NCBI GenBank assembly: GCA_030526445.1
Contig: JAUNCV010000001.1
Location: 1 to 39,841 of the forward strand
Length of the DNA stretch: 39,841 bases
Reading direction: 5' to 3'
Origin: Bacteroidales bacterium
Lineage (GTDB): Bacteria > Bacteroidota > Bacteroidia > Bacteroidales > UBA3663
Shown here: in pieces, positions 10,087 through 39,841 of the stretch
Numbering within the stretch: the first letter of the stretch is position 1
Layout of the letters: the number at the start of each line of letters is the position of its first letter
The notes under the pieces: generated by a model
What the model saw: only the letters and a program-made list of their open reading frames with translations
The model's database searches: none
Told to the model about the DNA's origin: nothing
Made by a program: the position numbers and the translations under genes

Positions 10087-10113
10087 CTGTATATGCTATT
10101 TGAAAGTTAGTAC

Positions 10114-13100
10114 TTAGAAGGTTACATTCAGACCTACAGTGGTAACCAGTGGTCGAGGATAAGCATTGCTTGAGTTCTCAGGATCGACACCCGAGAAGTC
10201 TTTAGACTTGATGGTGAGCAAGTTGTTAGCCTGCACATAGATGTCTGCATTCGAGATCCAACTGAACTTGTCGCAGATTTTCTTCAAAGAGTAACCTACC
10301 TGGATGTTTCGAAGCTTCAGGTAAGAACCATTCTCAACAAAGTAGCTTGAGCGACGGCCCTCGTTGTTGGCATCGTTGAAGGTGAGCATCGGGATGTCAG
10401 AACCGGTGTTCTGTGGGGTCCATGCATCGAGCACTCGCTTGCCATAGTTGGTGCCGGTGTAGAGCGAAGTGAAGTCGGTGAGAGTCTTGAGGTTGTTGTA
10501 AACATCGATGCCAGCCAGACCCTGCCAGAACATAGATACTGAGAGGTCTTTCCACTTCATGCCAAGGTTGAGACCATACTCAAACTTAGGCAGACCGTCG
10601 GTGAGATAGGTGCGGTCTTTGTCGTCGATGACATGGTCGCCATTGAGATCCTTGTAACGGATACGGCCAGGGCCTGCACCGGTCTGGGTGGCATGAGCAT
10701 CGACTTCGGCCTGATTCTGGAACAGACCATCGGCTACATAGCCATAGACAGAGTTGATAGAGCGGCCCAGGATGACATCGGTGGTGCCGTTGCCAGGATA
10801 AGAGGTGAGCACACTCTTAGGAAGCTTGGTGACTTCGTTCTGGTAACGCGAGATGTTGAGGCCCGCATTCCAGCTCCAGTCTTTATTGATGTTGTGGCTG
10901 TAGTTGAGCTGCAACTCCCAGCCCCAGTTCTTCATAGAGGCACCATTGACCCACTGATTGCCACCTTCGCCAATAACAGCCAGGTAGTTAGGGCTGATGA
11001 GAATGTCTTTGGTCTCTTTGATGAAGTAGTCGAACGAACCGGTGAGATCATTATTCAGGAAGCCGAAGTCAACACCCATATTGTGCTGGGTTGAGGTCTC
11101 CCACTTGAGATCTTTGTTGCTCAACTGCTGGCGAGCAAAACCAGAAACCATAGAGCCATTGCCGGCAATATCGTAGGCAGTACCCTTGTCTGGATTTGAA
11201 GCTACCGATGAGTCGGGAGTGCCATAGATGGCCTTATAGATTGACATATATGCATAGTTGTCGATCTCTTGGTTACCATTCTGGCCCCAGCCATAACGAA
11301 GCTTCAGGTCGCTGAACAGGTTGAGGTTGCGGATGAAATCCTCTTCCGACATGCGCCAGCCGAGAGAGTAGGCAGCGAAGGTGCCCCAGCGATTATCCTT
11401 GGCAAAACGGCTTGAACCATCGCGACGAAGGGTGAACGAAACCAGATATTTGTTCATGAGCTGGTAGTCGGCCTTGCCAAAGAACGAGAGCAAGGTGTAG
11501 CTTGAGCCTTCACCCGCATTGTTAATGCTCGATGAACCGGTGCTCAGATACATATAATTGAGATTCTCGAGAGAATAGCCCTTGCGGCTTGCCGAGAACA
11601 TCTGGTTGTTGTATTTGGCCATCTCGTGACCGAGCAGCACGGTGAGGCGGTGGTTGCGACCATATTCGGCCGAGTAGTTGAGGGTGTTCTGCCACTGCCA
11701 GTTGCCCATAAACTTGAACTGCTGGTCGAGCTTGTTGGTGGCATCACCCAGGAAGCCGCTGGTAAATGACTTGGTCATGTTGCGGAAGTAGGTTCCAAAG
11801 TAATCGACACCACCAGAGGTGCGGAAGGTGAAGTCTTTCAGGAACTTAACCTCGGCAAAGGCATTGCCGAAGAGGCGAACATTGTTGGCTGCATTCTCGG
11901 CATTGTCGACCAGCTGACGAAGAGGGTTGTGCACATCGCTCATGCCATTGACTGGGCCGCCCCAGCCGCCCTTGTTGTCGTGAACGGGTGTGAGAGGGTG
12001 CGAACGAAGCACATTCCACATCACTGCCGATGCATTGCCCTCGCCACCCACGGTCTGCTGATCCTTGTGGGTGTAGCTGACAGAGAGGTTTTCGCCTACA
12101 CGCAAGTGATTGTCGAAGAAGTTGTACTCAGAGTTGGCACGAAGAGAGGCACGCTTCATAAAGGTCTCTTTCATGATGCCCTCGTTGTCATAGTAGCCCA
12201 TTGAGAACATCGAGCGACCATGCTCATTGCCATTGGAGAAGGTGAGGTTGTAGCTCTGAATGAGTGGTACGCGTGAAACCTCATCATACCAGTCGGTATC
12301 GCCAGCTGTTTCGTTGTAAGGCGAGAAAGCGCTCTGGTTGACACCTACCGAAGAAAGGGTGGGGTTGTTATAGTCGTTGTTCCAGTTGAAGGTATAGAGG
12401 CTCTGGGCTGAGTTGGGGTCACTGCCATCGTTGACCCAGGCACGCCATACGGCTCGGCCCAGACCATTGGCATCGAGCACCTCCATGCGATTGTTGTAAA
12501 ACTGGGTAGAGAGCGAAGCATTGAAGGCAATCTCTTTGTAGCCCTCTTTGGCTCGTTTGGTGGTGATGATGACAACACCGTTGGCTGCACGGCTACCATA
12601 GATAGAGGCCGAAGAGGCATCCTTGAGCACCTGGATAGACTCGATATCGCGCGAGTTGAGCTCGTTGAGACCACGCTTGGTGGGCATGCCATCGATCACA
12701 TAAAGAGGATCGTTGTTACCCAGGGTGCCAATGCCTCGGATGCGTACGGTGGCTGCACCCTCGGGCGAACCATCGGTGGTGATGTTAACACCTGGCACAC
12801 GGCCCTGAAGGGCCTCCATGGGGTTGCTGGTTGGAATATCGCTGGTCTCTTTGAGCTTGATGACACTCACGGCACCGGTCAAATCGGCCTTGCGTGCCAC
12901 TTGATAACCTACTACTACTGCCTCTTCGAGCTGTTTGCTATCTTCGAGCAGTGTAACATTGAAAACATTTTTGCCATCGGTCAGCATCTCCTGCTGAACA
13001 TATCCTATATAAGAGAAAATGAGTGAGCTGCCGTCGGCAACAGTAAGAGTGAAGTTGCCATCCATATCGGTGACAGTACCATTGCTTGTACCCTTTTCGA

Positions 13101-13263
13101 TGACATTGACGCCAATGAGGCCATCGCCAAATTCGTCAATTACTTTGCCGGTCAGCTGCTTCTGAGCCCAAGTGGCTCCTACGAAACATGATGAGACGAG
13201 GAGGGTGGCTGCGAGTCGCTTGGCTCCCGTCTGTCTTTTCGGGTTAGTCTGGTTTCTTTTCAT
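10114..13263 (-). CDS. SusC-family TonB-dependent outer-membrane transporter (1049 aa)
   Basis: Carboxypeptidase-regulatory-like domain (LTGKVIDEFGDGLIGVNVIEKGTSNGTVTDMDGNFTL). Plug motifs (VVVGYQVARKADLTGAVSV, VRIRGIGTLGNNDPLYVIDGMP, SSASIYGSRAANGVVIITTKRA). Terminal ...VGLNVTF. Paralogous to the gene at 1045..4164. Confidence 0.95.
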   Translation of the reverse strand: MKRNQTNPKRQTGAKRLAATLLVSSCFVGATWAQKQLTGKVIDEFGDGLIGVNVIEKGTSNGTVTDMDGNFTLTVADGSSLIFSYIGYVQQEMLTDGKNVFNVTLLEDSKQLEEAVVVGYQVARKADLTGAVSVIKLKETSDIPTSNPMEALQGRVPGVNITTDGSPEGAATVRIRGIGTLGNNDPLYVIDGMPTKRGLNELNSRDIESIQVLKDASSASIYGSRAANGVVIITTKRAKEGYKEIAFNASLSTQFYNNRMEVLDANGLGRAVWRAWVNDGSDPNSAQSLYTFNWNNDYNNPTLSSVGVNQSAFSPYNETAGDTDWYDEVSRVPLIQSYNLTFSNGNEHGRSMFSMGYYDNEGIMKETFMKRASLRANSEYNFFDNHLRVGENLSVSYTHKDQQTVGGEGNASAVMWNVLRSHPLTPVHDNKGGWGGPVNGMSDVHNPLRQLVDNAENAANNVRLFGNAFAEVKFLKDFTFRTSGGVDYFGTYFRNMTKSFTSGFLGDATNKLDQQFKFMGNWQWQNTLNYSAEYGRNHRLTVLLGHEMAKYNNQMFSASRKGYSLENLNYMYLSTGSSSINNAGEGSSYTLLSFFGKADYQLMNKYLVSFTLRRDGSSRFAKDNRWGTFAAYSLGWRMSEEDFIRNLNLFSDLKLRYGWGQNGNQEIDNYAYMSIYKAIYGTPDSSVASNPDKGTAYDIAGNGSMVSGFARQQLSNKDLKWETSTQHNMGVDFGFLNNDLTGSFDYFIKETKDILISPNYLAVIGEGGNQWVNGASMKNWGWELQLNYSHNINKDWSWNAGLNISRYQNEVTKLPKSVLTSYPGNGTTDVILGRSINSVYGYVADGLFQNQAEVDAHATQTGAGPGRIRYKDLNGDHVIDDKDRTYLTDGLPKFEYGLNLGMKWKDLSVSMFWQGLAGIDVYNNLKTLTDFTSLYTGTNYGKRVLDAWTPQNTGSDIPMLTFNDANNEGRRSSYFVENGSYLKLRNIQVGYSLKKICDKFSWISNADIYVQANNLLTIKSKDFSGVDPENSSNAYPRPLVTTVGLNVTF

Positions 13264-13413: not shown

Positions 13414-13504
13414 CTATGTAGTGAACGAAAAGTATAAATGTTACATGCAATGTTACATATGTATCGGGGCTAAAAACTGCTGAAACTAAAAGAAATAGAG
13501 GTTC

Positions 13505-15119: not shown

Positions 15120-17852
15120 TTATCCCTTGCGTTTAACCAGCTCGTTGGGGTTTTCGCCAAAGAACTCTTTGTAACATTTGGTGAAGTAGCTGGGAGCGGT
15201 GAAGCCCACGGCATAGGCCACTTCGGCAATGGTATCGTCGCTCTGTGCCAATAGCTGCTGGGCTCGCTTGAGGCGGGTGTTGCGAATCAACTCGACTGGG
15301 GAATAGTTGGTCAAAGTCTTGCACTTACGGTAGAGTTGTGCACGGCTCATACCTATCTCCTCGCCCAATTGCTCTACGCCAAAGTCGGCATCGGAAAGAT
15401 GAGCATCGATGCATTTGCGCACACGTTCCATAAACTTGTCGTCGAGGCTGGAAGAGGGAGATGAAGTTATGTCGCTTCGCTTGTTAAGAGGTGAAGGAGT
15501 TTTATTCCCTTCGCCAAAGAAATCGCGAACGCGGTCATGGTTCTTAATCAATGTCTCGATCTGTGCCCTCAGCACATCCACATTGAATGGCTTGGCAACG
15601 TAGGCGTCTGCACCTTCGTGCAAGCCCTGAATGCGTTGCTCATCGAGCGAGCAGGCTGTAAGCATCAGTACCGGAATGTGACAGGTGTTGACTTCGTTCT
15701 TGAGGCGATGGCAACATTCCATGCCATCCATACCGGGCATCATCACATCGCATATTATCAAATTGGGGACAAGGCGCATGGCCTTCGAGATGCCCTCTTG
15801 CCCATTGCTGGCGGTAAAGACATGATAGGAGTCGGCCAAAAGAGATGAGAGCATCTGGCGGATGTCGGGATTATCGTCGATTACGAGCAACACCGGCTTA
15901 GGATCGTCTTCAGCCACTTCGTACTCTTGGCCGAAGGTATCAAGTTCGGTCTCTACTTGCTGGGTCGAAATCTTGGCTATCGGAGTTATGGTTTCGGCCG
16001 ATGTATCAGGATTTCTTGCCGGCAGTGTTACGGTGATAACGGTTCCGGTTCCTTCGGGCTGATTGCCAACCTCGATAGTGCCCTCGTGTAGTTCAACAAA
16101 GTTCTTAACTAGAGCCAATCCTAGGCCAGAACCATCGTGATGGAGGGAGTCGATTTGATAGAAACTATCGAAAATCTTCTGTATATGTTCGTTGTTGATG
16201 CCTGGGCCGGTATCGGCAATCGTGAGCACGAAAACAGGAGTGTTGGTATGCTGTTTTGTCAACGAGATGGAAATCTTACCATTTTCAGGTGTAAACTTGA
16301 AAGCATTACCTACGATATTATAAAAAACACGCTCCAGTTTGGCCGCATCGCCTTGGGTGAGGAATGGATTTTCATCTTCCATGCCTAATTCCTCACTTTT
16401 TACGTCTAATTCCAGTTTGATGTGTTTTTTGTGCGCCAGTCCATTGAATGATGCAAACCATGTCTCCACCTCTTGTTTGAGGTCGAGGTTTTGGAGGTTG
16501 AGTTCCATCTTGCCGCTCTCCATCTTGCGGAAGTCGAGAATCTGGTTGATGAGGCGCAGTAAGACCTGAGTGTTTTTATTGGCAATATTGAGCAACTGCA
16601 GTTGGTGAGGTTCTTTCACTTCGGTTAGCAACTTTTCAAGAGGTGCTGCGATGAGAGTGAGTGGGGTGCGAAAATCGTGGCTCACATTGGTGAAGAACGA
16701 TAGCTTGGCCTTCGTTGCCTCTTCGAGTTGGCTTTGTGCCAGGTGTTTGGCCTTGAGTTGTCGCATCAGGGCCATATACATCAATATAAATATGAAGAGG
16801 AAGACGAGAAGCGAATAGAGCAAGGTACGCTCCAAATTGTGCTGTTCCCAATAACGATCTACTTCGCTTTTCAGCATCTGTACTGCCTCGACCTGATGAG
16901 CCACTTCGGTTGCCACATTGTTCAGAAGTGGCGCACTTTCGGCATTGACCAAGTATGTGTCGAGGGCAATATTTCTTTCGAATGGTTTGCCTTGGAGAAT
17001 CTTGGCTGCGGTCTGAATAATGATGTCGCCACCCGTGGCATATACGGCAGAGGCATCTATTCTGCCCTGCGTAATGGCCTCGACGCCATTGCCTGTACCA
17101 GTCAGAGCATCGACACCCATGATGGGTATCAGATTGCCAGGAAAGTGTTTTTCCAAGGCGATGTCAGCACCCATAGCCATCTGGTCGTTTTGAGCAAGAA
17201 TAATTTGGATGTCGGGATGAAGGTTAAGAATCGAATCAACAACAGTCTCGCTTTGTTCTTTCAACCAATTGCCTCGGCATTGTATAATTTCATAGTGAAT
17301 GCCACTCTCTTCAATTTCTTCCATTAATCCTTGGTGCCTAAGAGTGGCAGGTGTTGAACCGTCTAATCCTAATATTTCTAGTACTTTGCCACCTTGTGGT
17401 AGTTGCTGATGCAAATAAAGCCCCATTTGGTGGCCTACAACAAGATTGTCACCGCCTATGAAGGCTGTGTATTTCTCGTTGGTCATCTTTCGGTCTGCCA
17501 CAATGACAGGAATGCCTGCGTCGAAGGCTTGGCTCATCACAGGAGTGAGTTTTGCAGCCTCGCGAGGTGAAACAATCAGCAAATCGACCTTTTTTTCGAT
17601 AAAATATTCAATGTCCGAAACTTGCCTGTCGTTATCATCATCGGCCGAACGCACTTCCATCTCCATTTCGGGATGGAAAAGCAGTTCGCGCTTCATTTCT
17701 TCGTTAAGTTTAGTACGCCAGGCATCGTTGCTGCATTGCGATACGCCTATATGATAGCGCACAGCCCCCTGTCCGTCGCAAGCAGCGAGGAACAGGAGGC
17801 TGAGAAATAAGGGAATATATAGGGACAGTTTCCTATAAAAGGTTGTTATCAT
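15120..17852 (-). CDS. Hybrid two-component system sensor kinase/response regulator with a periplasmic-binding-protein sensor (PBP-TM-HisKA-HATPase-REC-AraC HTH, 910 aa)
   Basis: PBP domain (YHIGVSQCSNDAWRTKLNEEMKRE, IPVIVADRK, AFIGGDNLVVGHQ). TM helix LLYSLLVFLFIFILMYMALM. H-box KLSFFTNVSHDFRTPLT. ATPase boxes (GNAFKFTP, DTGPGI, GSGLGLALV). Receiver (PVLLVIDDNPD, LIICDVMMPGMDG, VLMLTA, YVAKPF). AraC HTH (MSRAQLYRKCKTLTNYSPVELIRNTRLKRAQQLL). This matches the architecture known for monosaccharide-sensing HTCS such as B. thetaiotaomicron BT1754. Confidence 0.92.
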   Translation of the reverse strand: MITTFYRKLSLYIPLFLSLLFLAACDGQGAVRYHIGVSQCSNDAWRTKLNEEMKRELLFHPEMEMEVRSADDDNDRQVSDIEYFIEKKVDLLIVSPREAAKLTPVMSQAFDAGIPVIVADRKMTNEKYTAFIGGDNLVVGHQMGLYLHQQLPQGGKVLEILGLDGSTPATLRHQGLMEEIEESGIHYEIIQCRGNWLKEQSETVVDSILNLHPDIQIILAQNDQMAMGADIALEKHFPGNLIPIMGVDALTGTGNGVEAITQGRIDASAVYATGGDIIIQTAAKILQGKPFERNIALDTYLVNAESAPLLNNVATEVAHQVEAVQMLKSEVDRYWEQHNLERTLLYSLLVFLFIFILMYMALMRQLKAKHLAQSQLEEATKAKLSFFTNVSHDFRTPLTLIAAPLEKLLTEVKEPHQLQLLNIANKNTQVLLRLINQILDFRKMESGKMELNLQNLDLKQEVETWFASFNGLAHKKHIKLELDVKSEELGMEDENPFLTQGDAAKLERVFYNIVGNAFKFTPENGKISISLTKQHTNTPVFVLTIADTGPGINNEHIQKIFDSFYQIDSLHHDGSGLGLALVKNFVELHEGTIEVGNQPEGTGTVITVTLPARNPDTSAETITPIAKISTQQVETELDTFGQEYEVAEDDPKPVLLVIDDNPDIRQMLSSLLADSYHVFTASNGQEGISKAMRLVPNLIICDVMMPGMDGMECCHRLKNEVNTCHIPVLMLTACSLDEQRIQGLHEGADAYVAKPFNVDVLRAQIETLIKNHDRVRDFFGEGNKTPSPLNKRSDITSSPSSSLDDKFMERVRKCIDAHLSDADFGVEQLGEEIGMSRAQLYRKCKTLTNYSPVELIRNTRLKRAQQLLAQSDDTIAEVAYAVGFTAPSYFTKCYKEFFGENPNELVKRKG

Positions 17853-26267: not shown

Positions 26268-27302
26268 ATGGCATTAATGGACCAACTCGTTGCTAAGGCT
26301 AAGGCCAACAAGCAGCGCATTGTGCTCGCTGAGGGCACAGAACCTCGTACCATTCAGGCAGCTGACCGCATTCTTGCTGACGGTGTTGCAGACATTATCC
26401 TCATCGGTGCAAAGTCTGAAATCGACGCTCTCGTTGCAGAGTACGGCCTGAAGAACATTGACAAGGCTACTATCATTGAACCAGAGAACAATCCTAACGC
26501 ACAGAAGTATGCCGATCTCCTCTTCAAACTTCGCGAGAAGAAGGGCATGACCCCAGAGAAGGCTGCAGAACTTGTTAAGAACCCACTCTATCTTGGCACT
26601 CTTATCATCAAGAATGGTGAGGCTGACGGTCAGGTAGCTGGTGCTCGCAATACTACTGGCGACGTGCTTCGTCCAGCACTCCAGATTATTAAGACCGCTC
26701 CTGGCATCAGTTGTGTTTCTGGCGCATTCATCATGATTATGGAGAATGAGGCAGCAAAGGCTTATGGCAAGGAGGGTATCATGGTATTCGGCGACTGCGC
26801 TGTTACTCCAAATCCTGATGCTAAGCAACTCGGTCAGATTGCAGTTTGTTGTGCTGATACTGCACACGATATTGCAGGTATTGAGACCCCAGTTGTAGGT
26901 ATGCTTTCATTCTCTACCAAGGGTTCTGCAAACCACGAGATGTGCGACAAGGTGATCGAGGCTACCGCTATCGCAAAGGAACTTCGTCCAGAACTTCAGA
27001 TTGATGGTGAACTTCAGGCTGATGCTGCTATTGTTCCATCAGTAGGTGCAAGCAAGGCTAAGGGCAGCACCGTGGCAGGTCACTGTAACACCCTCGTATT
27101 CCCAACTCTCGAGGTAGGTAACATTTGCTACAAGCTTGTTCAGCGTCTCACTGGCGGTATTGCTATCGGCCCAATCCTTCAGGGTATCGCTGCTCCTGTC
27201 AACGATCTCTCTCGTGGTTGCTCTGTTGAAGAAATTTATCAGACTGTTACCGTAACCTGCAATCAGGCTATCGGTGCTAAGGAGCGTGCAGCAGCAAAAT
27301 AA
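26268..27302 (+). CDS. pta: Phosphate acetyltransferase
   Basis: Short-form Pta: KRIVLAEGTEPRTIQAA, GEADGQVAGA, GDCAVTPNP, LSFSTKGSA, NTLVFPTLEVGNICYKLVQRL, PVNDLSRGCS. Lies immediately upstream of ackA. Confidence 0.93.
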   Translation: MALMDQLVAKAKANKQRIVLAEGTEPRTIQAADRILADGVADIILIGAKSEIDALVAEYGLKNIDKATIIEPENNPNAQKYADLLFKLREKKGMTPEKAAELVKNPLYLGTLIIKNGEADGQVAGARNTTGDVLRPALQIIKTAPGISCVSGAFIMIMENEAAKAYGKEGIMVFGDCAVTPNPDAKQLGQIAVCCADTAHDIAGIETPVVGMLSFSTKGSANHEMCDKVIEATAIAKELRPELQIDGELQADAAIVPSVGASKAKGSTVAGHCNTLVFPTLEVGNICYKLVQRLTGGIAIGPILQGIAAPVNDLSRGCSVEEIYQTVTVTCNQAIGAKERAAAK

Positions 27303-27350
27303 TTCTGCTTGCTTACTTTTAACAATGTAAAGCATTATTTACAAAGAAAA

Positions 27351-28547
27351 ATGAAGATTTTAGTTCTGAACTGCGGTTCATCATCGTTAAAATATAAGGT
27401 ATTCGATGGCAAAGAGGTCATCGCTCAGGGTGGTGTAGAGAAAATTGGCCTCCCAGATTCATTCCTCAAACTCACCGATCCACAGGGCAATAAAGTTGTT
27501 GTTGAGCATTTCATGCTCGAGCACACTGCTGCTGTTGAGTTCGTATTCTCAGAGCACCTGCTCAATCCTAAGTATGGCGTGCTGAAGAGTGCAGACGAGA
27601 TTCAGGCAGTAGGTCATCGCGTGCTTCATGGCGCTATGAAGGTGACTAAGTCAAGCCTTGTGACCGATGAACTCATTCAGATTGTGAAGGAGTGTGCTGT
27701 ACTCGGCCCTCTTCACAATCCTGCTAACCTTAAGGGCATCATGGCTGTTAAGCAGCTCATGCCAAATGTTCCTCAGGTGGCTGTGTTCGATACCGCTTTC
27801 CACCAGACCATGCCAGAGAAGGCTTATATGTATGCCATCCCTCGCGAAATGTTCGAGAAGTGGGGCGTTCGTCGTTATGGCTTCCACGGCACTTCTCATC
27901 GTTTTGTGAGCAAGCGTGCTATTGAGTACTTGGGTCTCAACCCTAACAACTCAAAGCTTATTGTGGCTCATGTTGGTAATGGTGCTTCAATGAGCGCTGT
28001 TGTCAATGGTAAGTGTGTTGATACTTCTATGGGTCTCACCCCACTCGAGGGTCTCGTAATGGGTACTCGTTCAGGTGATATCGATGCTGCTGCTGTTACC
28101 TTCATGATGGAAAAGGAGGGTATGACTCCTGCTCAGATGGACACCATGCTCAATAAGCAGTCAGGTATGCTCGGTATGTGTGGTTGCAGCGATATGCGCG
28201 ATGCTTACCAGCAGGCACTTGACGGCCACAAGGATGCTCAGACCGCTCTTGACGTTTACTGCTATCGCATCAAGAAGTATATTGGTGCTTATGCTGCTGC
28301 TATGGGTGGTGTTGATGCCATTGCTTTCACTGGTGGTGTGGGCGAAAACCACAACTATGTGCGTGAGCAGGTTTGCAAGGACATGGAGTTCCTTGGTATC
28401 AAGATTGATGCAGAGAAGAATGCTGCTACTCACGGTGATGAGGCGATCCTCTCTACCGCTGACTCAAAGGTTATCGTAGCCGTTGTTCCTACCGATGAGG
28501 AACTCATGATTGCTACCGATACTGAGGAGATTGTTAGCAAGCTCTAA
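27351..28547 (+). CDS. ackA: Acetate kinase
   Basis: MKILVLNCGSSSLKYKVF, GHRVLHG, FDTAFHQTMPEKAYMYAIP, YGFHGTSHRFV, AHVGNGASMSAV, GLVMGTRSGDID, FTGGVGEN. I prefer the start at ATG 27351 over the track's 27309 because it gives the canonical N-terminus. Confidence 0.95.
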   Translation: MKILVLNCGSSSLKYKVFDGKEVIAQGGVEKIGLPDSFLKLTDPQGNKVVVEHFMLEHTAAVEFVFSEHLLNPKYGVLKSADEIQAVGHRVLHGAMKVTKSSLVTDELIQIVKECAVLGPLHNPANLKGIMAVKQLMPNVPQVAVFDTAFHQTMPEKAYMYAIPREMFEKWGVRRYGFHGTSHRFVSKRAIEYLGLNPNNSKLIVAHVGNGASMSAVVNGKCVDTSMGLTPLEGLVMGTRSGDIDAAAVTFMMEKEGMTPAQMDTMLNKQSGMLGMCGCSDMRDAYQQALDGHKDAQTALDVYCYRIKKYIGAYAAAMGGVDAIAFTGGVGENHNYVREQVCKDMEFLGIKIDAEKNAATHGDEAILSTADSKVIVAVVPTDEELMIATDTEEIVSKL

Positions 28548-29515: not shown

Positions 29516-32074
29516 TTACTTCACCTGGTCCTTAAATGCAAGGCCAAAGATGAGATAACCTGTATTACCAGCAATGGTTCCTTCGTTTTGTCCCCAGAGG
29601 AATGGCCAATCGTCAAAGTTTTCAAAGTGGTCAGGATTTCGGAACAAAAGACCTGGAGCTACATTGCCAGGAATGAATGAGAAGTCGGCGCGGTTATTGC
29701 CATAGAACACATTCTTCGGACGAGCTGCACCGACGGCCGCTACGAGCGAATAGTTGTGATACTGGTGGCAACCAAAGAGCCAGTCGGTAGCCTTATAGAG
29801 GTGACGCTTCTCAATGATGTCGGGGAAGTACTTGTGAGCATAGCAGACCGTGGTGCCAAACTGCACTACAGCGCCAGAACCTGCCCAATTGCGTAAGGTG
29901 AGTGGTACACCATAGGGATTTTCGGTTTCAAGGCTATCAATGTAGTTCTTGTACTTCTCTACATAAGGGCGAAGCTTGCTGAGATAGGCCTCGTCCATAA
30001 AAGGAACGGCGTCAAGAGCAGTGCTGATGCTCCAGTTGACATTCATGTCAAGGGTTTTCCAAATGCCAGCTTCAAATTTGTCGAGATACTGCAGTTCGCG
30101 TGTTGCGGCATAAAGTTGCAAGTTTGTGGCTACATTGCCAAAACCGCGCATTGACATCTGATCGTGTTCGCCCGAAATATGACGTTTGCTCTGACCTCGC
30201 TTGGCCATAATCTCTTCGGCCTCTTTCATGAGTCGCTTGCTCTGGGTGAGAGCACGTTTGGCAAGATCGTCGTTATAGCCTTGCAGGCATCGGCTTGCAG
30301 CTGCAAACATGGTAGCAGCACGGAAGTCAAGCATCGGGTTGCGGGTGGTGAAGGCCCACATATCGTCGGGCGTACCAGAGCGCTTGCCATCGGCCGAAAC
30401 CTCGTAAGGCTTGAGCTTTGGGTCATAATGCAAGCCATCGGTCAAAGAGCCGGCATCGCCTAGGTGATGATAGTTGTCGAGCACCGAATTGCTGAGGCAG
30501 CTGGCCATGTGTCCAATCTGCTCGGCCTGAGCCACAAGGTTGAGTGTGCCATGCTCGATGAACTGCAGAATATCGGGAACACCATCAGGTCGGTGCAGAT
30601 CAACATAACGCTGCTCTTCGGAGACAAAAGTCATATCGCGCTCGGTGTGGAAAACTTCCCAGATGCTGACAAGGTTCTGAACTACAGAGATGTTCGAACC
30701 AGTTTCGATATCAAAGTCTCCTGCATCGAAGAAGCCGCCCACGTTGAGGCCAGGGATGAGTTCGAGAGGCTTGTACTTGGTCTCAGTCTCTGGCCCCTGG
30801 AAGTGAAGGTCAAAATGGTCTGATGGCGGTGCCTGCAGATAGCCCTCCTTGAATGGCTCGCCATGCCACATGCGGTAGCCTTCATTCACAGCCATGTGGT
30901 TCATGTGAATAGGAATCCAGACATCGCTTGTGGCATCGGTGATGTGGTCGTACACATCGTTGCCGATGATAAAGTTGTTGGTCTTTGTTTGGCCATACTG
31001 AATAAAGTACACGCCGGGTTCGCGCAGTTCAGAGAAGTCAAACTTCACATAGTTATATTTAAAGTAGCGACCCCAGGTTGAGGTTTTCCCGCTGAATGCT
31101 GTTGTCACCTTGCCATCGGCATTCACTTTCATGATTGTGGCAGAAGCCTCAACTTTGTCGTTCTTGTCAAGCTCAATGACTGCAACCTTAGGCTGCTCGG
31201 GCAGATAGCCCACTTGGTTAAAACCAATATTCGGTTCACGAATCCAGCCGGGGATAGCATGTGGCTCTACAGTCCAGCTAATCACTTTGCCAGTCTTGTC
31301 GGCAGGGATTGAGCTGTGAAGCACAAACCAACCATTTTGAGCCAGCATGCGTCCATCATAGAGTTCCAGATCAGTATCGGAAGAAGAGATGCGAATCATG
31401 CGTTCTGGTGCATCAGAAGCAATAAGTAGGTCATGTCCTTGCGCCAATGGCAGTGGATCTATAAAGCGGTCTGTGCCGCGATCGTCGTAGGTTTTGAATC
31501 CTTTGAACTGCTTTGCTTTCTCGCGGTTCGGACGTGTTACAGTTTCGCTTACAGCATAGCGAGGGAGTCGGTCAATGCGGCCATCCATCTGGTAGGTTTT
31601 CTGCCAGTATTGAGAAGGACGGAATTCAAGATTGAAGCCAGCATCGCCCAGCAAAGCATTGGGCACAGGCTTGTCAAGGTAAACATCAATCTCAACCGTT
31701 TTTCCTTTGCCTGTAACTACAATGCGCGAGTCAAAGTCATAATCTTCATAGCGAAGGCAAACTTCGATGCTATTGTTCTCTTTATTGACTGTGCGTGAGG
31801 TCATGGTTGGTACCAAATCCCACTGCTCTGGAGTTTTGTTCAGACGTATGGCACCACCTTGAATGGTACGGTCACCATGGTGAATGATTTCAATGCCTGA
31901 GTTCTTCTCATCATTGAAACCGCCATTAAAGTCGTTGCTGAACACTAAAACATTGACACCCTGCTCTTCGAAATACTCGAGGTCGTTGAGCACAAGGGCC
32001 TGATTGGCCTCCTTCTGACCACAAGCGGTCAGAAGGAGTGCTAAACAGGAGAGATTGAAGAAAGTCTTCTTCAT
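29516..32074 (-). CDS. GH9-like glycoside hydrolase lipoprotein with an N-terminal extra domain and a cellulase-type Ig-like domain (852 aa)
   Basis: Lipobox LALLLTACGQ. Ig-like linker motif IGFNQVGYLPEQPKVAVIE. GH9-type GGFFDAGDFDIETG (the DAGD catalytic-base motif). C-terminal WGQNEGTIAGNTGYLIFGL resembles the GH9 NEvAi..NA acid motif. The family call is from motifs only. Confidence 0.6.
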   Translation of the reverse strand: MKKTFFNLSCLALLLTACGQKEANQALVLNDLEYFEEQGVNVLVFSNDFNGGFNDEKNSGIEIIHHGDRTIQGGAIRLNKTPEQWDLVPTMTSRTVNKENNSIEVCLRYEDYDFDSRIVVTGKGKTVEIDVYLDKPVPNALLGDAGFNLEFRPSQYWQKTYQMDGRIDRLPRYAVSETVTRPNREKAKQFKGFKTYDDRGTDRFIDPLPLAQGHDLLIASDAPERMIRISSSDTDLELYDGRMLAQNGWFVLHSSIPADKTGKVISWTVEPHAIPGWIREPNIGFNQVGYLPEQPKVAVIELDKNDKVEASATIMKVNADGKVTTAFSGKTSTWGRYFKYNYVKFDFSELREPGVYFIQYGQTKTNNFIIGNDVYDHITDATSDVWIPIHMNHMAVNEGYRMWHGEPFKEGYLQAPPSDHFDLHFQGPETETKYKPLELIPGLNVGGFFDAGDFDIETGSNISVVQNLVSIWEVFHTERDMTFVSEEQRYVDLHRPDGVPDILQFIEHGTLNLVAQAEQIGHMASCLSNSVLDNYHHLGDAGSLTDGLHYDPKLKPYEVSADGKRSGTPDDMWAFTTRNPMLDFRAATMFAAASRCLQGYNDDLAKRALTQSKRLMKEAEEIMAKRGQSKRHISGEHDQMSMRGFGNVATNLQLYAATRELQYLDKFEAGIWKTLDMNVNWSISTALDAVPFMDEAYLSKLRPYVEKYKNYIDSLETENPYGVPLTLRNWAGSGAVVQFGTTVCYAHKYFPDIIEKRHLYKATDWLFGCHQYHNYSLVAAVGAARPKNVFYGNNRADFSFIPGNVAPGLLFRNPDHFENFDDWPFLWGQNEGTIAGNTGYLIFGLAFKDQVK

Positions 32075-32122
32075 GGTTTTGCGTTAGTATATGATATTTA
32101 GTATTTGATTGTTCACAATGGT

Positions 32123-34357
<2,235 letters not shown>

Positions 34358-34391
34358 TTATGCAATTGATATTTTTTGCCGAAAGATGGTG

Positions 34392-34399
34392 CAAAGATA
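34392..34399 (-). promoter_or_regulatory. Bacteroidota -7 promoter box (TAtcTTTG) for the xyn10-GH9 operon
   Basis: Matches TAnnTTTG on the minus strand, 50 nt upstream of ATG 34342. Confidence 0.6.
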
Positions 34400-34445
34400 C
34401 AATGCCTTAAGCTATTAAACAATAGTGTTACATATATAAAAAGAT

Positions 34446-34482
34446 AAAATGTTACAAACCGGACCTCAGTTTGTAACATTTT
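34446..34482 (-). terminator. AT-rich perfect hairpin (14-bp arms AAAATGTTACAAAC / GTTTGTAACATTTT, 9-nt loop) followed by a U-tract. Likely terminator of the HTCS-like gene.
   Basis: Perfect inverted repeat that begins 18 nt after the stop at 34500. On the minus strand it is followed by ATCTTTTTAT. Lies 47 nt upstream of the -7 box of xyn10. Confidence 0.55.
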
Positions 34483-34499
34483 TAAGTGCTCGAAATGGG

Positions 34500-37400
34500 T
34501 TATTTTGTTGCTTTCATCTCCTGTCGATGCAGTTGCATATACTCAGCAGGTGGCATGCCATACATCTCTTTGAAGGCTTTTGAGAAGTTGTGCTGGTTGC
34601 TAAAGCCAACTTGCACTGCTACTTCGCCAATTGTAAGTTTCTTTTCAGCCAACAGCTCGGCTGCTTTGGTCAGACGCACATTGCGATAAAACTCGCGTGT
34701 GGTTTGTCCCGTAAGTTCTTTCAGCTTGCGGAAGAGGTGCACGCGGCTTATGCCGACCTCTGAGGCAATCATGTCAGAGTTGAGGTTTGTATCCTTCAAA
34801 TGCTCTTCAACTACGCGTGTTACTCGTGCAAGTAGCTTTTCATCGTGAGTGGTTACTTTGGGAGTCTCAATCTTGTCGGCTTGACGGTCTCGTCCACTCA
34901 ATGAGTTGCGAAGTCGGTCTTGACCTTTAAGCAGATTTTGTACCGTACTTTTAAGTACCTCAATGTTGAATGGCTTGGTCATGAAGACATCCACTCCAAG
35001 ATTGAGGCTGGCAATACGGTCTTCGTCTGTTGAACGGGCCGTAAGCATCACAATAGTGAGTTGATTGAGGTTGATGTTTCTTCGCACTTGTGTGCAGAGT
35101 TCAATGCCATCAATCATAGGCAGAATCAAGTCGGTGATCATTATGTCGAATTTCTGCAAAGCCAGTTCGCGAAGAGCCTCTGTTCCATTCGAGCAAGCTA
35201 CGACCTTATAACTTGACGAGAGTTCTTGCTCAATGTAGTTTCGGGTCTTGTTGTCATTGTCCACAAGCAGAATCTTGTGCCCATTCTTTGGGGTCTTGGC
35301 TTTGAACACCTCTTGAGTTGCGGCAGTTTGCATAAAGAACTGTAACTTTGCCTCGGTGACAGCTTGTGCCTGTTTATGTTGCTTGATATGTTGACGAATA
35401 TGGTGGCGTCGGCGTATTTGCAGGAACGAAAGGTAACTAATCGTCCCTAAAAGCCAGAGCCAAATGAGCAGCGCCCACCATCGCATATACCAAGGATAGG
35501 CAATATGTACATTTATGCTCGATATCTCAGAATCTATGCCATCGCACACAGCTTTGAACTGCAGAGTATGGCTACCGGCTGAGAGGTTACTCAAGGTGAT
35601 TCGGTTTGAAAGCGGTGGGAGTGACTGCCAGCGTTCTTCATCGAGCGATGCTTGATAAATAACGCGACGAGTGTATGAAAGTGGACGTGTAGCGAACTCG
35701 ATTGTAAAAGAGTGGTCCTGATCGGTTAGTTTGAAACTGCCGTCAGTTTCGGGCAATACTTGTCGTTGGTCAGTGTAAAGAGCAACGACGCGAGCCTCGC
35801 ATTTCTGTGAGCGAATGCTGATATTCTTTGGGTCGAACCATGTGATGCCATTGATGCCTCCGAACCAAAGTTGCCCAGAAGCATCGCGCATCGATGATTT
35901 TTTGTAAAACTCGTTGCCTTGCAATCCGTCTTGCACTCCATAGTTGTTGAAGGTGTTGCGTGCCACGTTGTACTTGGTCAAGCCTTGGTTCGAGCTAATC
36001 CAGAGATTTCCTTCATCGTCGGGCAAAGCGGCATAGCTGCACGAAGCTGGCAGACCCTCTTTTTTTGTTAGCTCTTGCACCTCTTGGGTGATGCAGTTGT
36101 AAATAACAAAGCCTCTGTTGGTGCAAAGACAGAGTTGGTTGGGGGCGAAAAGACAGAGATCGTTAACAACGTGTTGGCTTAAGACTGTTTGTTGAGCAAA
36201 GTCGTCGGTATTGAGGTCGAAGATGCAAAGTCCGTTGTAAGTGCCAACATAGAGTTTGTTGTCGTTCTCATTATATAATATGTCAGTACTCCAATTGCTC
36301 ACTCCATGGCTCGATGTAATGGGCTCAAGGCTCTGAAGTCGTTCGTTGAAACGCATCACGCCGTTGCCCATCGATGCCACCCAGACAGTGCCTTCTCTGT
36401 CTTCAGTAAAAGCATACACGTTGACTGTTGATGCATCTTTCCCTTGTACGGGCAAATAGCGACATTGTCCGTTTGAAAGGTTAACCCATCCTAAGCCTTG
36501 GTGAAAAGAACCGAACCACACACGTTTCTTTGAGTCCTCGAATAGGGTCATGAATGCATTGGGAACTGTGCGGTTTGTGCCATCGCCATGATAGCTTGCA
36601 ATTTTTTCGCCTTGAGGGGTGATGCCATGCAGACCGCCATTGTCGGTGCCTACCCAAATGTTGCCATCGTGAGTCTCAAGCAGAGTTGTGACGCATCGGT
36701 CACCAATGAAATTGCTGCTACCCGACTTAACACCCATATATCGAAACTGAGCGGGTGTTGGGGTAGTGAGCATGACACCTTTCTGATAAAGTCCCATCCA
36801 GATGTCGTGGTTGCGGCTCACGGCTATGGTGTGCACTTTCTGTACGGCAGGATCAACGAATGGATAGTTGAATAAGAAATCGGTGATGGTGCCACTAGGA
36901 CAGTGCAGGAATTTCATGCCTTGTCCGTCGGTTCCAATACAGATAAATGGTGTTTCGTTCAAAGTCTGCAGATCACGCACAAAGAAGGGCTGGCATTCGG
37001 TGGCAATGGTGTCAAAGACCTGAGTTTGGTCATTGAACCGCAGTAAGCCTGCATTTCCGCAACCTGCATACATCTTTCCATCGGGACCCAGACACAGTGT
37101 TGAAAGCATGTAACGCTGATTCGAGGCATCGCGAAGGCAATAGAGGGAGCCTTGTGCTGAGATGCGATATAAATCTTCGTTCTGCTTTAATATCCAGAGA
37201 GCGCCTTGTGCATCTTCGGCACAACGGAAGAAACTGCCCAACTTCTGTGAAAAAAGCATGTTCGAAACCTCCATCTCGCCCTTGTCATTGACCGAAATAA
37301 CATAAGAGGTATGGCCCGAAACTACCAGTTTGCCCGATGAGAGCAGGGTAAGGTCTGTGATATTTTCAGGATAAATCTCTTGGTCGGGTGCAGCAGCAGG

Positions 37401-37742
37401 GAGCGAGAAGTCGTCGGTGGCAGGTCTGTACATCTGTACACCTTGAATTGTTCCCACAAAGAGACGGTTCTCTTGGTCTACTGCCAAGGTGCGTACAAAA
37501 TTGCTGACCAGCGAGTGAGGATTGCCCTCTTCGTGGTAGTAGGATATGAATCGAGAGCCGTTGTATTTGCATAGGCCGTCTTCGGTGGCAACCCACACAA
37601 TACCCTCTTTATCCTCTACAATCTTGTTTATGAGCGAGTTTGGTAGGTCGCTGTCTGATGTGAAGAGCATATTGACCTGCGCCTCGGCCATAACCGAGAC
37701 GAGCAGGAGCAAGATTGAGAAGAGGATTTTTTTACAGTTCAT
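34500..37742 (-). CDS. HTCS-like regulator lacking the histidine-kinase core: periplasmic beta-propeller repeats + Y_Y_Y, TM, receiver, AraC HTH (1080 aa)
   Basis: Signal peptide, then many propeller-type repeats (VWVATEDGLCKY, IWVGTDNGGLHG, VWFGSFHQGLGW, VWVASMGNGVMRF, LYVGTYNGLCIF, LWISSNQGLTKY, LWFGGINGITWF). Y_Y_Y-like region (YQASLDEERWQSL). TM helix WWALLIWLWLLGTISYLSFL. Then TEAKLQFFMQTAATQEVFKAKTPKNGHKILLVDNDN runs directly into a receiver (IMITDLILPMIDG, IVMLTA, FMTKPF) and an AraC HTH. No H-box histidine or N/G1/G2 ATPase boxes are visible. Confidence 0.85.
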   Translation of the reverse strand: MNCKKILFSILLLLVSVMAEAQVNMLFTSDSDLPNSLINKIVEDKEGIVWVATEDGLCKYNGSRFISYYHEEGNPHSLVSNFVRTLAVDQENRLFVGTIQGVQMYRPATDDFSLPAAAPDQEIYPENITDLTLLSSGKLVVSGHTSYVISVNDKGEMEVSNMLFSQKLGSFFRCAEDAQGALWILKQNEDLYRISAQGSLYCLRDASNQRYMLSTLCLGPDGKMYAGCGNAGLLRFNDQTQVFDTIATECQPFFVRDLQTLNETPFICIGTDGQGMKFLHCPSGTITDFLFNYPFVDPAVQKVHTIAVSRNHDIWMGLYQKGVMLTTPTPAQFRYMGVKSGSSNFIGDRCVTTLLETHDGNIWVGTDNGGLHGITPQGEKIASYHGDGTNRTVPNAFMTLFEDSKKRVWFGSFHQGLGWVNLSNGQCRYLPVQGKDASTVNVYAFTEDREGTVWVASMGNGVMRFNERLQSLEPITSSHGVSNWSTDILYNENDNKLYVGTYNGLCIFDLNTDDFAQQTVLSQHVVNDLCLFAPNQLCLCTNRGFVIYNCITQEVQELTKKEGLPASCSYAALPDDEGNLWISSNQGLTKYNVARNTFNNYGVQDGLQGNEFYKKSSMRDASGQLWFGGINGITWFDPKNISIRSQKCEARVVALYTDQRQVLPETDGSFKLTDQDHSFTIEFATRPLSYTRRVIYQASLDEERWQSLPPLSNRITLSNLSAGSHTLQFKAVCDGIDSEISSINVHIAYPWYMRWWALLIWLWLLGTISYLSFLQIRRRHHIRQHIKQHKQAQAVTEAKLQFFMQTAATQEVFKAKTPKNGHKILLVDNDNKTRNYIEQELSSSYKVVACSNGTEALRELALQKFDIMITDLILPMIDGIELCTQVRRNINLNQLTIVMLTARSTDEDRIASLNLGVDVFMTKPFNIEVLKSTVQNLLKGQDRLRNSLSGRDRQADKIETPKVTTHDEKLLARVTRVVEEHLKDTNLNSDMIASEVGISRVHLFRKLKELTGQTTREFYRNVRLTKAAELLAEKKLTIGEVAVQVGFSNQHNFSKAFKEMYGMPPAEYMQLHRQEMKATK

Positions 37743-37747
37743 GCGTG

Positions 37748-39841
37748 TTATTGTTGCACAATGCCTTCGCGGTGCACGCCATCCACCTTTATTGTTAGAG
37801 GTTTGGTGAAGCGAACATGACGCACATGGGTGGTCTCTTGCACTGCAGGCAAGGCATCGAGTACAGAAGTGTGCACACAGCCATCGCCACGGAAGTCGTT
37901 AATGGTCATGTAGCATACACCCAAGCTGGTGAGGTTTTGGAAGAAGTGTGTGCCTTGTGACGGATCGACCTGGAAGGAGTCGAGACCCGACAGGAATGCC
38001 CAACCATGGGTCGCTTGAACCCCATCGGCCCGGACCAATAAGGACGCAACGGCGCCCCTCTTGAAGCAGCTGTCGGTTGATGCGTTCAATCTCGTCGGCA
38101 ATGGCAGGATTCCAACTGGCAGTAAAGCCTTCGGTCTTGACATAAACCACATCCTCCACATCTTTAAATATACCATGACCAATGGCCGAATGTGAACGAA
38201 GCAAGGTTTCTTCGTCAGGAATGAGCGAGAGGTCTTCATTGATAGACATACGGTTATCAACCATCGGACGGATTTGCAAGAGGTTGAAGTCACCGCAATT
38301 CTTGCCGTTCTCATCCTTGTAAAGGTTTACGGCAAACTCAATCTCTACCGGACGGCGCATCTCTTCCTGACCATATTGAAGCACTTTTTGCAAGAGCTCA
38401 GGCATAGGAAACATGCCGTTTTGCAGTACACCCGCCATTGAGATGATCTTTCTGTTTCGGCCCTCGTAATAACCGTCGTAGATACATTGGTCGTTGGGGT
38501 CGTAGGTCGAACAAACCCAAGGCAAAGTTCCATCTTCCTCGGCGTGGCGCACAGGATATTTTCGCAGATTGAAGCCGTCATCGGTCATGAACGAGTGGCT
38601 GTAGTCGTAGTCAAGGTCGAGTGCCAGGAAGGCTGTCTGGGTGTCGCGCAAGGCAATCTCCATCTCGCTCATCTGCAGCACTTGGTTAGGGTGTGCAGGA
38701 GAAACTCTGAGGCTTACACCGCCGTCAACAATATATTTGCCGAGACCAAAAGCAAGTGAAACAGTTCCCTCATCGGCTTGTTCGTCTCCAATGGGGTAAT
38801 AGTTCACGCTTCGGGCCACGCCCGAGATGACTGGATAGAATCTTGAACCGTGCTGTTGACCTACCACCTCTTGCAATATGACAGCCATTTTCTCTTGGTC
38901 AATGACATTCGATGTTGCAGTCATATAATCCTTCGAACTGCGATAGAATACGCTTGCATAAACAGCTTTTACGGCATTGGCCAAAAGCTCCATGCGACGA
39001 TATTTGTCGCTTGTATATGGAATCATATAGGTGCTATAGATGCCGGCAAAAGGTTGGTAGTGACTATCTTCGAGCAAGGAAGAAGAACGCACGGCCAAAG
39101 GACCCTTCACTACCTCCATAAACGCCTCAAGGTCACCCAAAAGGCGCATTGGCAGACGGCTGCGCAGGAAGGCTTGCAAAATCTCTTCATCGGGCAAGTC
39201 GCTTAGTGCGATATGGTAAAGGCCGTTTGAGTCCATAAACTCGTCGAAGACATCGGTACACAACACCACAGTCTTTGGAATGCAGGTGTTGACTCTGGTG
39301 TTCGAAATCTGGCCATTGTTGGTTGGCAGGTAGCCCTGAAGGCTTTCGTGACGGGTCAGCATTCGGTCAAGGAATGCCAGGCCACGACCTTTTCCACCCA
39401 GAGAGCCATCACCGATGCGTGCAAAGTTCGAGTATTTGTCGAATCGTTCGCGCTGGAAGACTGCTACCACACCTTGGTTTTTCATTTTACGGTAGCTCAC
39501 AATAGCGTCGAAGATGAGATGACGATGGGCGTCAATATCCTGCAGCATGTTGTAGGTGATATGCTTCAGGAACTCTGATATTGGGAACAGGGCACGCGAT
39601 TCGAGCCAACGCGATACATTATTATGCTTTACGTGATAAAGCAGGGACGAGGTAGGAATCGTAAAGATATTATCTTGCAATTCCTTCAGATTATGTATGC
39701 GTACTACCTCCTCCATGGTGTCTGGATTACGGAATACAAAGTCTCCGAAACCAAAATATTTGAGCACCATATCGCGTAGGTCAACATCCATCTTTTTCGA
39801 GTTTTTGTCGATAAAGATGTATCCGCTATCCCAGGCACGTT
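37748..39841 (-). pseudogene. PEP/pyruvate-binding (PPDK_N, ATP-grasp) domain protein. The reading frame is broken near 37990, and the 5' end lies beyond the window end.
   Basis: ORF 37899..39791 carries a PPDK_N-like motif (GDGSLGGKGRGLAFL) and ends ...LIGPGRWGSSDPWLGIPV followed by nonsense. A second frame (the 3' part of ORF 37748..38314) continues with plausible protein SGLDSFQVDPSQGTHFFQNLTSLGVCYMTINDF...KPLTIKVDGVHREGIV. Upstream of the listed Met the frame stays open to the window edge (...RAWDSGYIFIDKNSKKMDVDL). Confidence 0.65.

Follow-up and report, generated by a model that had tools for sequence, protein, structure and literature searches.

Hybrid two-component systems (HTCSs) are the main regulators of polysaccharide utilization in gut and rumen Bacteroidota, and in current models phosphorylation of the receiver frees the DNA-binding domain (DBD). 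What, then, becomes of such a regulator when its kinase has been lost and its sensor, receiver and DBD remain? The question is raised by a gene at 34500..37742 on the minus strand of a 39,841-nucleotide stretch of a Bacteroidales metagenome-assembled genome (MAG; GenBank assembly GCA_030526445.1, contig JAUNCV010000001.1, positions 1 to 39,841), the whole of which we call the window. The gene as a whole encodes a kinase-less derivative of a propeller-type HTCS of 1080 amino acids (aa). The explanation we lean towards, giving it about an even chance, is that a real deletion yielded a transmembrane pseudo-receiver regulator working without phosphorylation; it is set out below together with the evidence from alignments, receiver substitutions and a second kinase-less lineage, and with the explanations that compete with it.

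Pfam searches agreed with the layout and coordinates given in an earlier account made from the letters of the window (the sequence-only reading), namely Reg_prop repeats, a receiver and an AraC-type domain in a 1080-aa open reading frame (ORF), which runs for 1080 codons without an internal stop or frameshift to a stop codon at 34500-34502. From the N terminus, and with all coordinates on the minus strand, the protein comprises a signal-peptide-like segment (residues 1-21, MNCKKILFSILLLLVSVMAEA; 37680..37742), recognized by inspection rather than by a predictor and aligning to the N termini of orthologs; a periplasmic sensor of Reg_prop beta-propeller repeats (residues 22-754; 35481..37679; six stretches, 109.8 bits), conserved with full-length orthologs; and a single transmembrane (TM) helix (about residues 755-776, WWALLIWLWLLGTISYLSFLQI; 35415..35480), a hydrophobic stretch found by inspection and aligned to the same segment in all orthologs. 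There follow a juxtamembrane stalk (residues 777-807; 35322..35414), which protein and codon alignments identify as the surviving N-terminal half of helix 1 of the dimerization and histidine phosphotransfer (DHp) domain, and a residual pre-receiver linker (residues 808-823, ATQEVFKAKTPKNGHK; 35274..35321), which corresponds by homology to the final ~16 residues of the ortholog linkers. The C-terminal part consists of the receiver (REC; residues 824-934; 34941..35273; Response_reg, 79 bits), which retains its fold and evolves faster than those of the full-length sisters, and an AraC-type HTH_18 DBD (residues 992-1070; 34533..34769; 80 bits).

The central claim of the sequence-only reading, that the kinase core is missing, held up: neither HisKA nor HATPase_c was detected in the regulator by Pfam even at E≤1, and both were strong in the same search in the periplasmic-binding-protein (PBP)-type HTCS of the window (15120..17852). 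NCBIfam returned partial receiver and AraC-type matches only. A Y_Y_Y-like region had also been described; Pfam detects no Y_Y_Y in the regulator or its close relatives, but ungapped alignment to the distant homolog P0100, whose Y_Y_Y domain spans residues 700-759, places an equivalent under the Pfam threshold at residues 688-747 (35502..35681), and judged by this alignment the region is present but divergent. Of the parts that define an HTCS, the protein thus has the sensor, TM helix and AraC DBD and lacks HATPase_c and a HisKA/DHp domain with its histidine. By descent it belongs with the HTCSs, having four full-length HTCS relatives at 72-73% identity and both flanking genes conserved.

Among 5.8 billion clustered proteins, the regulator turned out to be a singleton allele, represented by one identical protein (P0001) on one MAG contig, the window itself. 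The next 119 matches were 1270-1423 aa long and carried HisKA and HATPase_c, except for P0077 (1152 aa) and P0084 (1151 aa), which were without HATPase_c. When orthologs were surveyed for the same deletion, the nearest relatives all proved to be full length: the four closest (P0002-P0005), at 72-73% identity over shared columns, have 1342-1388 aa, making the regulator about 260 residues shorter and bearing out the earlier impression that it is unusually short. Their contigs carry the neighbours found in the window, a PPDK_N-family gene upstream (~92% identity) and a GH10 gene downstream (76-83%). Relatives found in a scan of GTDB representative genomes had at most 38% identity and came exclusively from rumen or gut MAGs.

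Codon-level homology to the orthologs runs through F-F-M-Q-T-A (F-F-M-N-I-A in the orthologs), stops one codon before the phospho-His and restarts ~16 residues ahead of the first strand of the receiver. What has been lost, in frame, is about 257-259 codons (~775 bp), comprising the phospho-His, the rest of the DHp domain, the whole of HATPase_c and the larger part of the pre-receiver linker; in the numbering of P0004 the missing span is about residues 809-1067 and encloses HATPase_c (918-1029). Codon and protein alignments with full-length orthologs therefore agree with the sequence-only reading that the phospho-His, the remaining DHp domain and the whole ATPase domain are absent and that the loss is in frame. 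The junction, which had been put at about 35290-35350, falls between A807 and A808 (35321..35322, or 35322|35321 in the direction of the gene), where the protein encoded by the ORF (34500..37742) reads ...FFMQTAATQEVFK.... Likewise, the segment EAKLQFFM (residues 797-804), taken earlier for the start of the H-box, aligns with the H-box start of the complete HTCS of the window (KAKLSFFTNVSHDFRTP, residue 381) and better still with the orthologs (EAKLQFFMNIAHEFRTP). Judged from these alignments, the regulator is a propeller-type HTCS ortholog stripped of its kinase core by one in-frame deletion.

The receiver carries substitutions that track the loss of the kinase. Residue counts refer to a set of 168 homologs, of which 165 are kinase-bearing and 3 are kinase-less (the regulator, here also called the query, P0077 and P0084). 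The acceptor Asp and the Lys are invariant (168/168), and the query keeps the conformational-switch residues D871 (the acceptor, 35130-35132), T901 and K923. At the Mg2+-binding Asp position (D13 of CheY), however, where substitutions in CheY strongly impair Mg2+ binding and phosphotransfer, the query has Asn (N829, codon AAT; 35256..35258), the second position of the acidic pair that had been read as D-N. Asp occupies this position in 165/165 kinase-bearing homologs, and N, S and A occur only in the three kinase-less proteins. Its equivalence was established by alignment to the E-D pair of BT4124 in the response-regulator (RR) crystal sequence of that protein (PDB 12aw), to which the C-terminal part of the regulator aligns over its full length (36% overall similarity, E=2.8e-44). 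A second change lies directly behind the acceptor Asp, which is followed by L872-I873-L874 (35121..35132 including D871): positions D+2/D+3 are Met-Met in 164/168 homologs and read I-L, S-L and N-L in the kinase-less proteins, with one other deviant per position among the 165 kinase-bearing homologs.

Overall, the receiver shows what is expected of a pseudo-receiver, in that the fold is kept and phospho-site residues are lost (D829N, M873I and M874L, all at columns at least 95% conserved). An AlphaFold2 (AF2) model of residues 815-1080 gave a receiver with pLDDT of about 90 and a TM-score of 0.95 to RR468. The 'intact receiver' of the sequence-only reading is therefore right as regards the fold, D871, T901 and K923 but not as regards three deeply conserved phospho-site residues.

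These substitutions bear first on whether the deletion is real. If the true genome had a full-length HTCS and the contig had skipped or collapsed about 775 bp during assembly or binning, recovery of the gene just once, on one MAG contig, would fit, and two further deletions nearby could signal a locally poor assembly. Assembly collapse cannot, however, create point substitutions that track kinase loss, and the three receiver substitutions are otherwise almost confined to P0077 and P0084. Nor does the junction offer a long boundary repeat to drive a collapse: its flanks align codon by codon, any microhomology there would amount to a few bases at best, and the remaining large ORFs of the window appear to be whole. 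A possible GC.CA match at the junction, for want of a direct ancestor, decides nothing between microhomology-mediated deletion and collapse. On this internal evidence, the loss of the kinase would be biological and is unlikely to be an assembly artefact, to which we assign a very small probability.

The same residues bear on a possible phospho-donor. Since the acceptor Asp, the Thr and the Lys are retained, D871 might be phosphorylated in trans, by another HTCS, a histidine kinase or acetyl phosphate. HTCS kinases and receivers are said to pair with relaxed specificity (Townsend et al. 2013, cited in PMC11253607), and HTCS receiver fragments autophosphorylate in vitro with the small-molecule donor phosphoramidate (PMC11253607). 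The window also holds pta-ackA (26268..28547), but this is a housekeeping pair whose proximity is no evidence. Against phosphorylation in trans, the Mg2+-binding Asp, invariant in the 165 kinase-bearing homologs, is N829 here and A or S in the P0077/P0084 lineage, and the Met-Met pair beside the phosphorylation site has been lost convergently; because these residues should have been kept if phosphorylation were still selected, an external donor is disfavoured, and we give it a slim chance. Of the two options that the sequence-only reading had left standing, another donor or phosphorylation-independent signalling, the loss of the Mg2+-binding Asp and of Met-Met thus favours the second and speaks against the first.

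P0077 and P0084 provide a comparison for the query. They share 63% identity with each other and have their nearest full-length relatives at 53-58%; each protein turned up in two independent assemblies. Their deletion boundaries are identical, the end of DHp helix 2 leading straight to the pre-receiver linker; the whole DHp hairpin is kept and Pfam HisKA still detected, and the ATPase domain is entirely lost. In P0077 the phospho-His is replaced too (NITTQIRTP), and P0084 retains it. The loci lie in Bacteroidales metagenomes (L014:10001-13456, L015, L016:6001-9459 and L017), and the genomic contexts of the two proteins differ (OMP_b-brl_2/DUF6057 versus SusC-like/fasciclin). P0077 and P0084 form a lineage that is independent of the query and older. 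They resemble the query in having lost kinase activity independently while keeping the sensor, TM helix, receiver and AraC domain, in being substituted at positions 829, 873 and 874, and in showing acceleration confined to REC with conserved sensor and DBD. They differ from it in retaining a complete DHp hairpin, of which the query has half of helix 1, and in having been recovered twice each, whereas the query is a singleton. The kinase-less form with a receiver is rare, with 3/168 close homologs from two events, and the persistence of P0077 and P0084 over their divergence implies that kinase loss in HTCSs can be stable. In the literature searched, the coverage of which was incomplete, we found no paper describing a kinase-deleted HTCS and no description of ATPase-less HTCSs of the P0077/P0084 type.

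Because synonymous sites are saturated at 72% amino-acid identity, dN/dS was replaced by relative-rate, conserved-column and simulation tests. In the conserved-column test, deviations at columns at least 95% conserved among homologs were compared between domains (Fisher's test). The query deviates at 3/17 REC columns and 2/99 sensor and DBD columns (p=0.022, falling to 0.005 and 5e-4 at 90% and 80% thresholds), P0077 at 4/17 and 0/99 (p=3e-4) and P0084 at 6/17 and 1/99 (p=3e-5), with no REC enrichment in full-length sisters (not significant). Within the query, the sensor shows one deviation in 76 such columns and the DBD none in 22, so that deviations concentrate in REC rather than being spread as uniformly relaxed constraint would have them.

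Domain identities follow the same pattern. P0077 and P0084, both kinase-less, share 64% of sensor, 61% of REC and 84% of DBD residues, whereas kinase-bearing pairs at equal sensor divergence (60-61%) share 76-80% of REC and 83% of DBD residues; the query and P0004 share 74% (730 columns), 71% and 82%, respectively, compared to 76%, 82-83% and 89% for sister pairs (P0002 or P0005 versus P0004). Finally, in a simulation in which the three REC changes were taken as neutral, neutrality of the whole gene over an equal time predicts about 10 stop codons; the point estimate for the probability of an intact ORF is <1/600, and the lower confidence bound gives about 0.05. Taken together, these tests point to continued purifying selection on sensor and DBD after the loss of phospho-signalling, with release of the receiver at phosphotransfer residues only.

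How a receiver could act without being phosphorylated is suggested by work on the contact between REC and the DBD. Most Bacteroides HTCSs have an S/CHIP-D-K network by which the receiver, when unphosphorylated, keeps the DBD latched (Gao, Wu & Stock 2024, PMC11253607), and a 2026 crystal structure confirms this latch (PMC13292587). Across Bacteroides, conservation of its H, I and P positions is 91-98%; unphosphorylated receiver-DBD fragments of canonical HTCSs bind DNA weakly or not at all, latch substitutions lead to DNA binding without phosphorylation, and non-consensus HTCSs, for example BT4236 with Q at the phospho-His position, may need no phosphorylation (PMC11253607). In the query, alignment to PDB 12aw places N893-Q894-L895-T896 (35055..35066) on the REC side of the latch (alpha3-beta4 loop), where the consensus is S/C-H-I-P. 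The partners of the latch, D967 (34842-34844) and K1006 (34725-34727), have been kept; D and K are conserved in 166/168 homologs. Full-length sisters have NQLS or NELS, and the whole query clade thus deviates at H, I and P; P0077 and P0084 have NHIP, unlike the query close to the local consensus. In the rumen-dominated set of 168 homologs, the first latch position is mostly N, not S/C (NHIP 52, NHLP 37, SHLP 32).

On these grounds we favour the following course, in which the deletion with its boundaries, the orthology and synteny, the receiver-specific substitutions and the parallel lineage are what the sequences show, and continued regulation by the query protein, and its mechanism, are what we infer. 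The query descends from a canonical propeller-type HTCS, encoded in related rumen Bacteroidales between the PPDK_N-family and GH10-esterase genes. An in-frame deletion of ~775 bp left the sensor and TM helix joined by a stalk of ~30 residues and a linker of 16 to the receiver and AraC DBD. The non-consensus latch of the clade (NQLT/NQLS/NELS versus S/CHIP) may have rendered the kinase dispensable, and the receiver would have turned into a pseudo-receiver that keeps its fold and its D/T/K residues and loses residues needed only for phosphotransfer. Binding of a periplasmic ligand would be relayed through dimeric TM and stalk helices directly to the receiver, which would serve as a purely conformational coupler (through dimerization or DBD release) and so control binding at the GH10-esterase promoter.

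Several observations weigh against this course, and some of them would equally fit an inactive remnant, that is, a real deletion that left the regulator locked off or unexpressed, a young pseudogene in a locus under deletional decay. Within 3.3 kb there are three private deletions, affecting the kinase core, a promoter region of ~105 nt and the reading frame of the neighbouring gene. This last is the upstream PPDK_N-family gene (37748..39791, minus strand), otherwise ~92% identical to its syntenic orthologs. Compared with three of them it is missing 41 bp at about 37989/37990, a clean loss that shifts the frame and leaves two ORFs, 37899..39791 and 37748..38314. The ~105-nt region is conserved upstream of the regulator in 4/4 relatives (L001:1510-1616, L013:1787-1907 and equivalents in L012 and L002), where it contains a hairpin (ATGTAACAAAA-N9-TTTTGTTACAT), one further repeat and a TAtcTTTG box; in the window, comparison with the four relatives leaves as its scar the upstream TAA, 5 nt and the regulator ATG (37743..37750, minus strand). 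The box matches TAnnTTTG, the Bacteroidetes -7 consensus, which was used for the promoter search in place of a sigma-70 scan since Bacteroidota promoters differ, and no TAnnTTTG occurs on the coding strand within 2.1 kb upstream of the regulator. The regulator gene may be silent now, or its expression may depend on transcription continuing from the gene upstream.

Further points on this side concern the protein itself. The allele is known from a single MAG contig, and the kinase is present in 4/4 sisters and 165/168 homologs. Simple tallies of unique substitutions were set aside, as the query branches off first within its group, so that they are confounded by branch length; the Tajima relative-rate test with an outgroup, used instead, gave 76-86 unique changes in the query versus 54-61 (p=0.009-0.1), a mild whole-protein acceleration, mostly in the sensor, that is compatible with partial relaxation. 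The selection tests use small counts and assume that the REC changes are neutral and later than the loss of phospho-signalling. Because an unphosphorylated canonical receiver holds the DBD off (PMC11253607), a kinase-less protein could be locked off. The query also lacks the complete DHp bundle that P0077 and P0084 have, so a possible dimeric scaffold between sensor and receiver is mostly gone, and the AF2 model, though confident for the individual domains, leaves the arrangement of REC and DBD uncertain (pTM 0.63), the Foldseek library having been one without the BT4124 structure 12aw.

Against an inactive remnant stand the 1080-codon ORF free of stops and frameshifts, the contrast between 2/99 deviations in sensor and DBD (0/22 in the DBD) and 3/17 in REC, the simulated improbability of an intact ORF under neutrality since phospho-signalling was lost, and the persistence of such a loss under selection in P0077 and P0084. 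Loss of the promoter could moreover be offset by upstream read-through, as the terminator-like hairpin has been deleted too. We regard an inactive remnant as less likely than not, but, given the two further private deletions, as the main rival and a serious one.

A broader proposition, which we advance tentatively and consider rather improbable as it stands, is that HTCSs have a built-in phosphorylation-free route from the sensor through TM helix and stalk to the receiver and DBD that is sufficient for regulation, allowing repeated loss of the kinase. If this were true, the query, P0084, P0077 and a family of Reg_prop-Y_Y_Y-TM-AraC proteins would be snapshots of a recurring collapse from two-component to transmembrane one-component regulators, and the convergent losses, set against the retained acceptor Asp and Lys, would separate residues for phosphotransfer from those for fold and allostery.

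The Reg_prop-Y_Y_Y-TM-AraC family is exemplified by a 1063-aa protein with neither kinase nor receiver (L018:2564-5755), a member of a conserved family (P0319-P0342) at 21-24% identity to HTCSs, whose gene adjoins that of a full-length HTCS (P0122; 6001-10011). Equal lengths of the longest contig, for example for P0323 and P0067 (187315 bp) and for P0326 and P0132 (37202 bp), suggest a conserved tandem with a full HTCS. No protein with receiver and AraC domain but without a kinase was found among the Reg_prop-Y_Y_Y-TM-AraC proteins listed, none of which has PF00072. A second architecture of this kind, represented in the window by a 536-aa PBP-TM-AraC protein (4357..5967, minus strand), is populous: end-to-end matches of 500-560 aa account for about 38 of the top 150 clusters (50% identity), the rest being PBP-type HTCSs of ~900 aa. 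The existence of these two families establishes direct signalling from sensor through TM helix to AraC domain in nature. They share with the query a periplasmic glycan-type sensor, one TM helix, an AraC DBD and the lack of a kinase, but have no receiver and only about 35 residues between TM helix and DBD; the query, which keeps a full receiver between the two, is thus not itself a member of these one-component regulators. By analogy, its mode of action most probably resembles theirs.

The sequence-only reading had seen three stages of HTCS reduction in the PBP-TM-AraC protein, the complete HTCS and the query, a view that is valid in a loose sense only. The PBP-TM-AraC protein is indeed related to PBP-type HTCSs, but sensors of different classes do not make one evolutionary series. 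A better series, within the propeller type and using proteins from outside the window, is from full HTCS to P0084 (ATPase lost), P0077 (His lost too), the query (DHp lost) and Reg_prop-Y_Y_Y-TM-AraC proteins.

Among known systems close to it, the query resembles in layout propeller-type HTCSs such as BT4663 and BT4124 of B. thetaiotaomicron and P0002-P0005, with which it shares the Reg_prop sensor, TM helix, juxtamembrane helix up to the H-box, receiver and AraC domain and, with the orthologs, its position upstream of the GH10-esterase gene. It departs from them in lacking the phospho-His, a complete DHp domain and the ATPase domain, in the substituted Mg2+-binding Asp and Met-Met pair, and in the deleted promoter region. 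Pseudo-receivers in atypical, phosphorylation-independent response regulators (HP1043, ChxR, AmiR and FrzS) likewise keep the fold and have an incomplete acidic pocket, and they have no partner kinase, as the query has none in cis, with output presumably by conformation or dimerization; they are soluble and stand-alone, whereas the query is tethered to a TM sensor and its descent from a hybrid kinase is traceable. BT4236 and HTCSs with a non-consensus latch share with the query the proposed independence of phosphorylation and the deviating latch (PMC11253607), but going by the description of HTCSs in that paper they keep their kinase domains, the core of which is deleted in the query.

The presumed regulated target lies directly downstream. 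It encodes a 739-aa GH10 xylanase-esterase fusion (32123..34342, minus strand), identified by Pfam and syntenic at 76-83% identity, and is the sole basis for the label 'xylan locus' given to the region earlier. The genes downstream of the regulator (29516..34342, minus strand) encode this fusion, an 852-aa protein with weak GH9/CelD_N matches and then a DUF5020 protein. No SusC/SusD pair adjoins the regulator; the pairs in the window (1045..4164 and 8350..13263) lie near PBP-type regulators. The intergenic region with the GH10 promoter (34343..34499, minus strand) comprises a hairpin (AATGTTACAAAC-N9-GGTTTGTAACATT), a further TGTAACA copy and a TATCTTTG box, and is intact and conserved with sister loci.

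In that promoter, the TGTAACA core forms a hairpin and a direct repeat with 24-bp spacing ahead of the TATCTTTG box, an arrangement conserved in sister loci. The motif TTTTGTTACAT from the upstream region of the sisters has no match in the window; all that recurs there is a shorter core, TGTAACA. Counted as TGTAACA/TGTTACA, this core has 10 copies in the window, five of them in ~2.2 kb of intergenic DNA, with sites at 34426, 34450 and 34472 (GH10 promoter) and at 13439 and 13451 (upstream of the SusC gene 10114..13263). The core could be an operator, a terminator hairpin or both; we do not claim it as an operator, as hairpins resembling terminators overlap with it and the 24-bp spacing only approximates the ~21 bp given in the literature for HTCS sites.

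For annotation, these results are a warning that entries named 'two-component regulator propeller domain-containing protein' can conceal kinase-less forms, and that domain names alone are no basis for inferring how polysaccharide utilization loci are regulated. Should the query allele be dead, it would be an example of a rumen lineage losing the regulator beside a xylanase gene, which would be ordinary but relevant to how strains differ in degrading fibre. Kinase-deleted natural alleles nevertheless offer a ready-made test of phosphorylation-free sensor output and of catalytic versus allosteric receiver residues, as well as a concrete route for the evolution of one-component transmembrane regulators out of two-component ones. 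Their main interest lies in the convergent, receiver-specific pattern found in two lineages, which makes phosphorylation-independent signalling by HTCSs directly testable.

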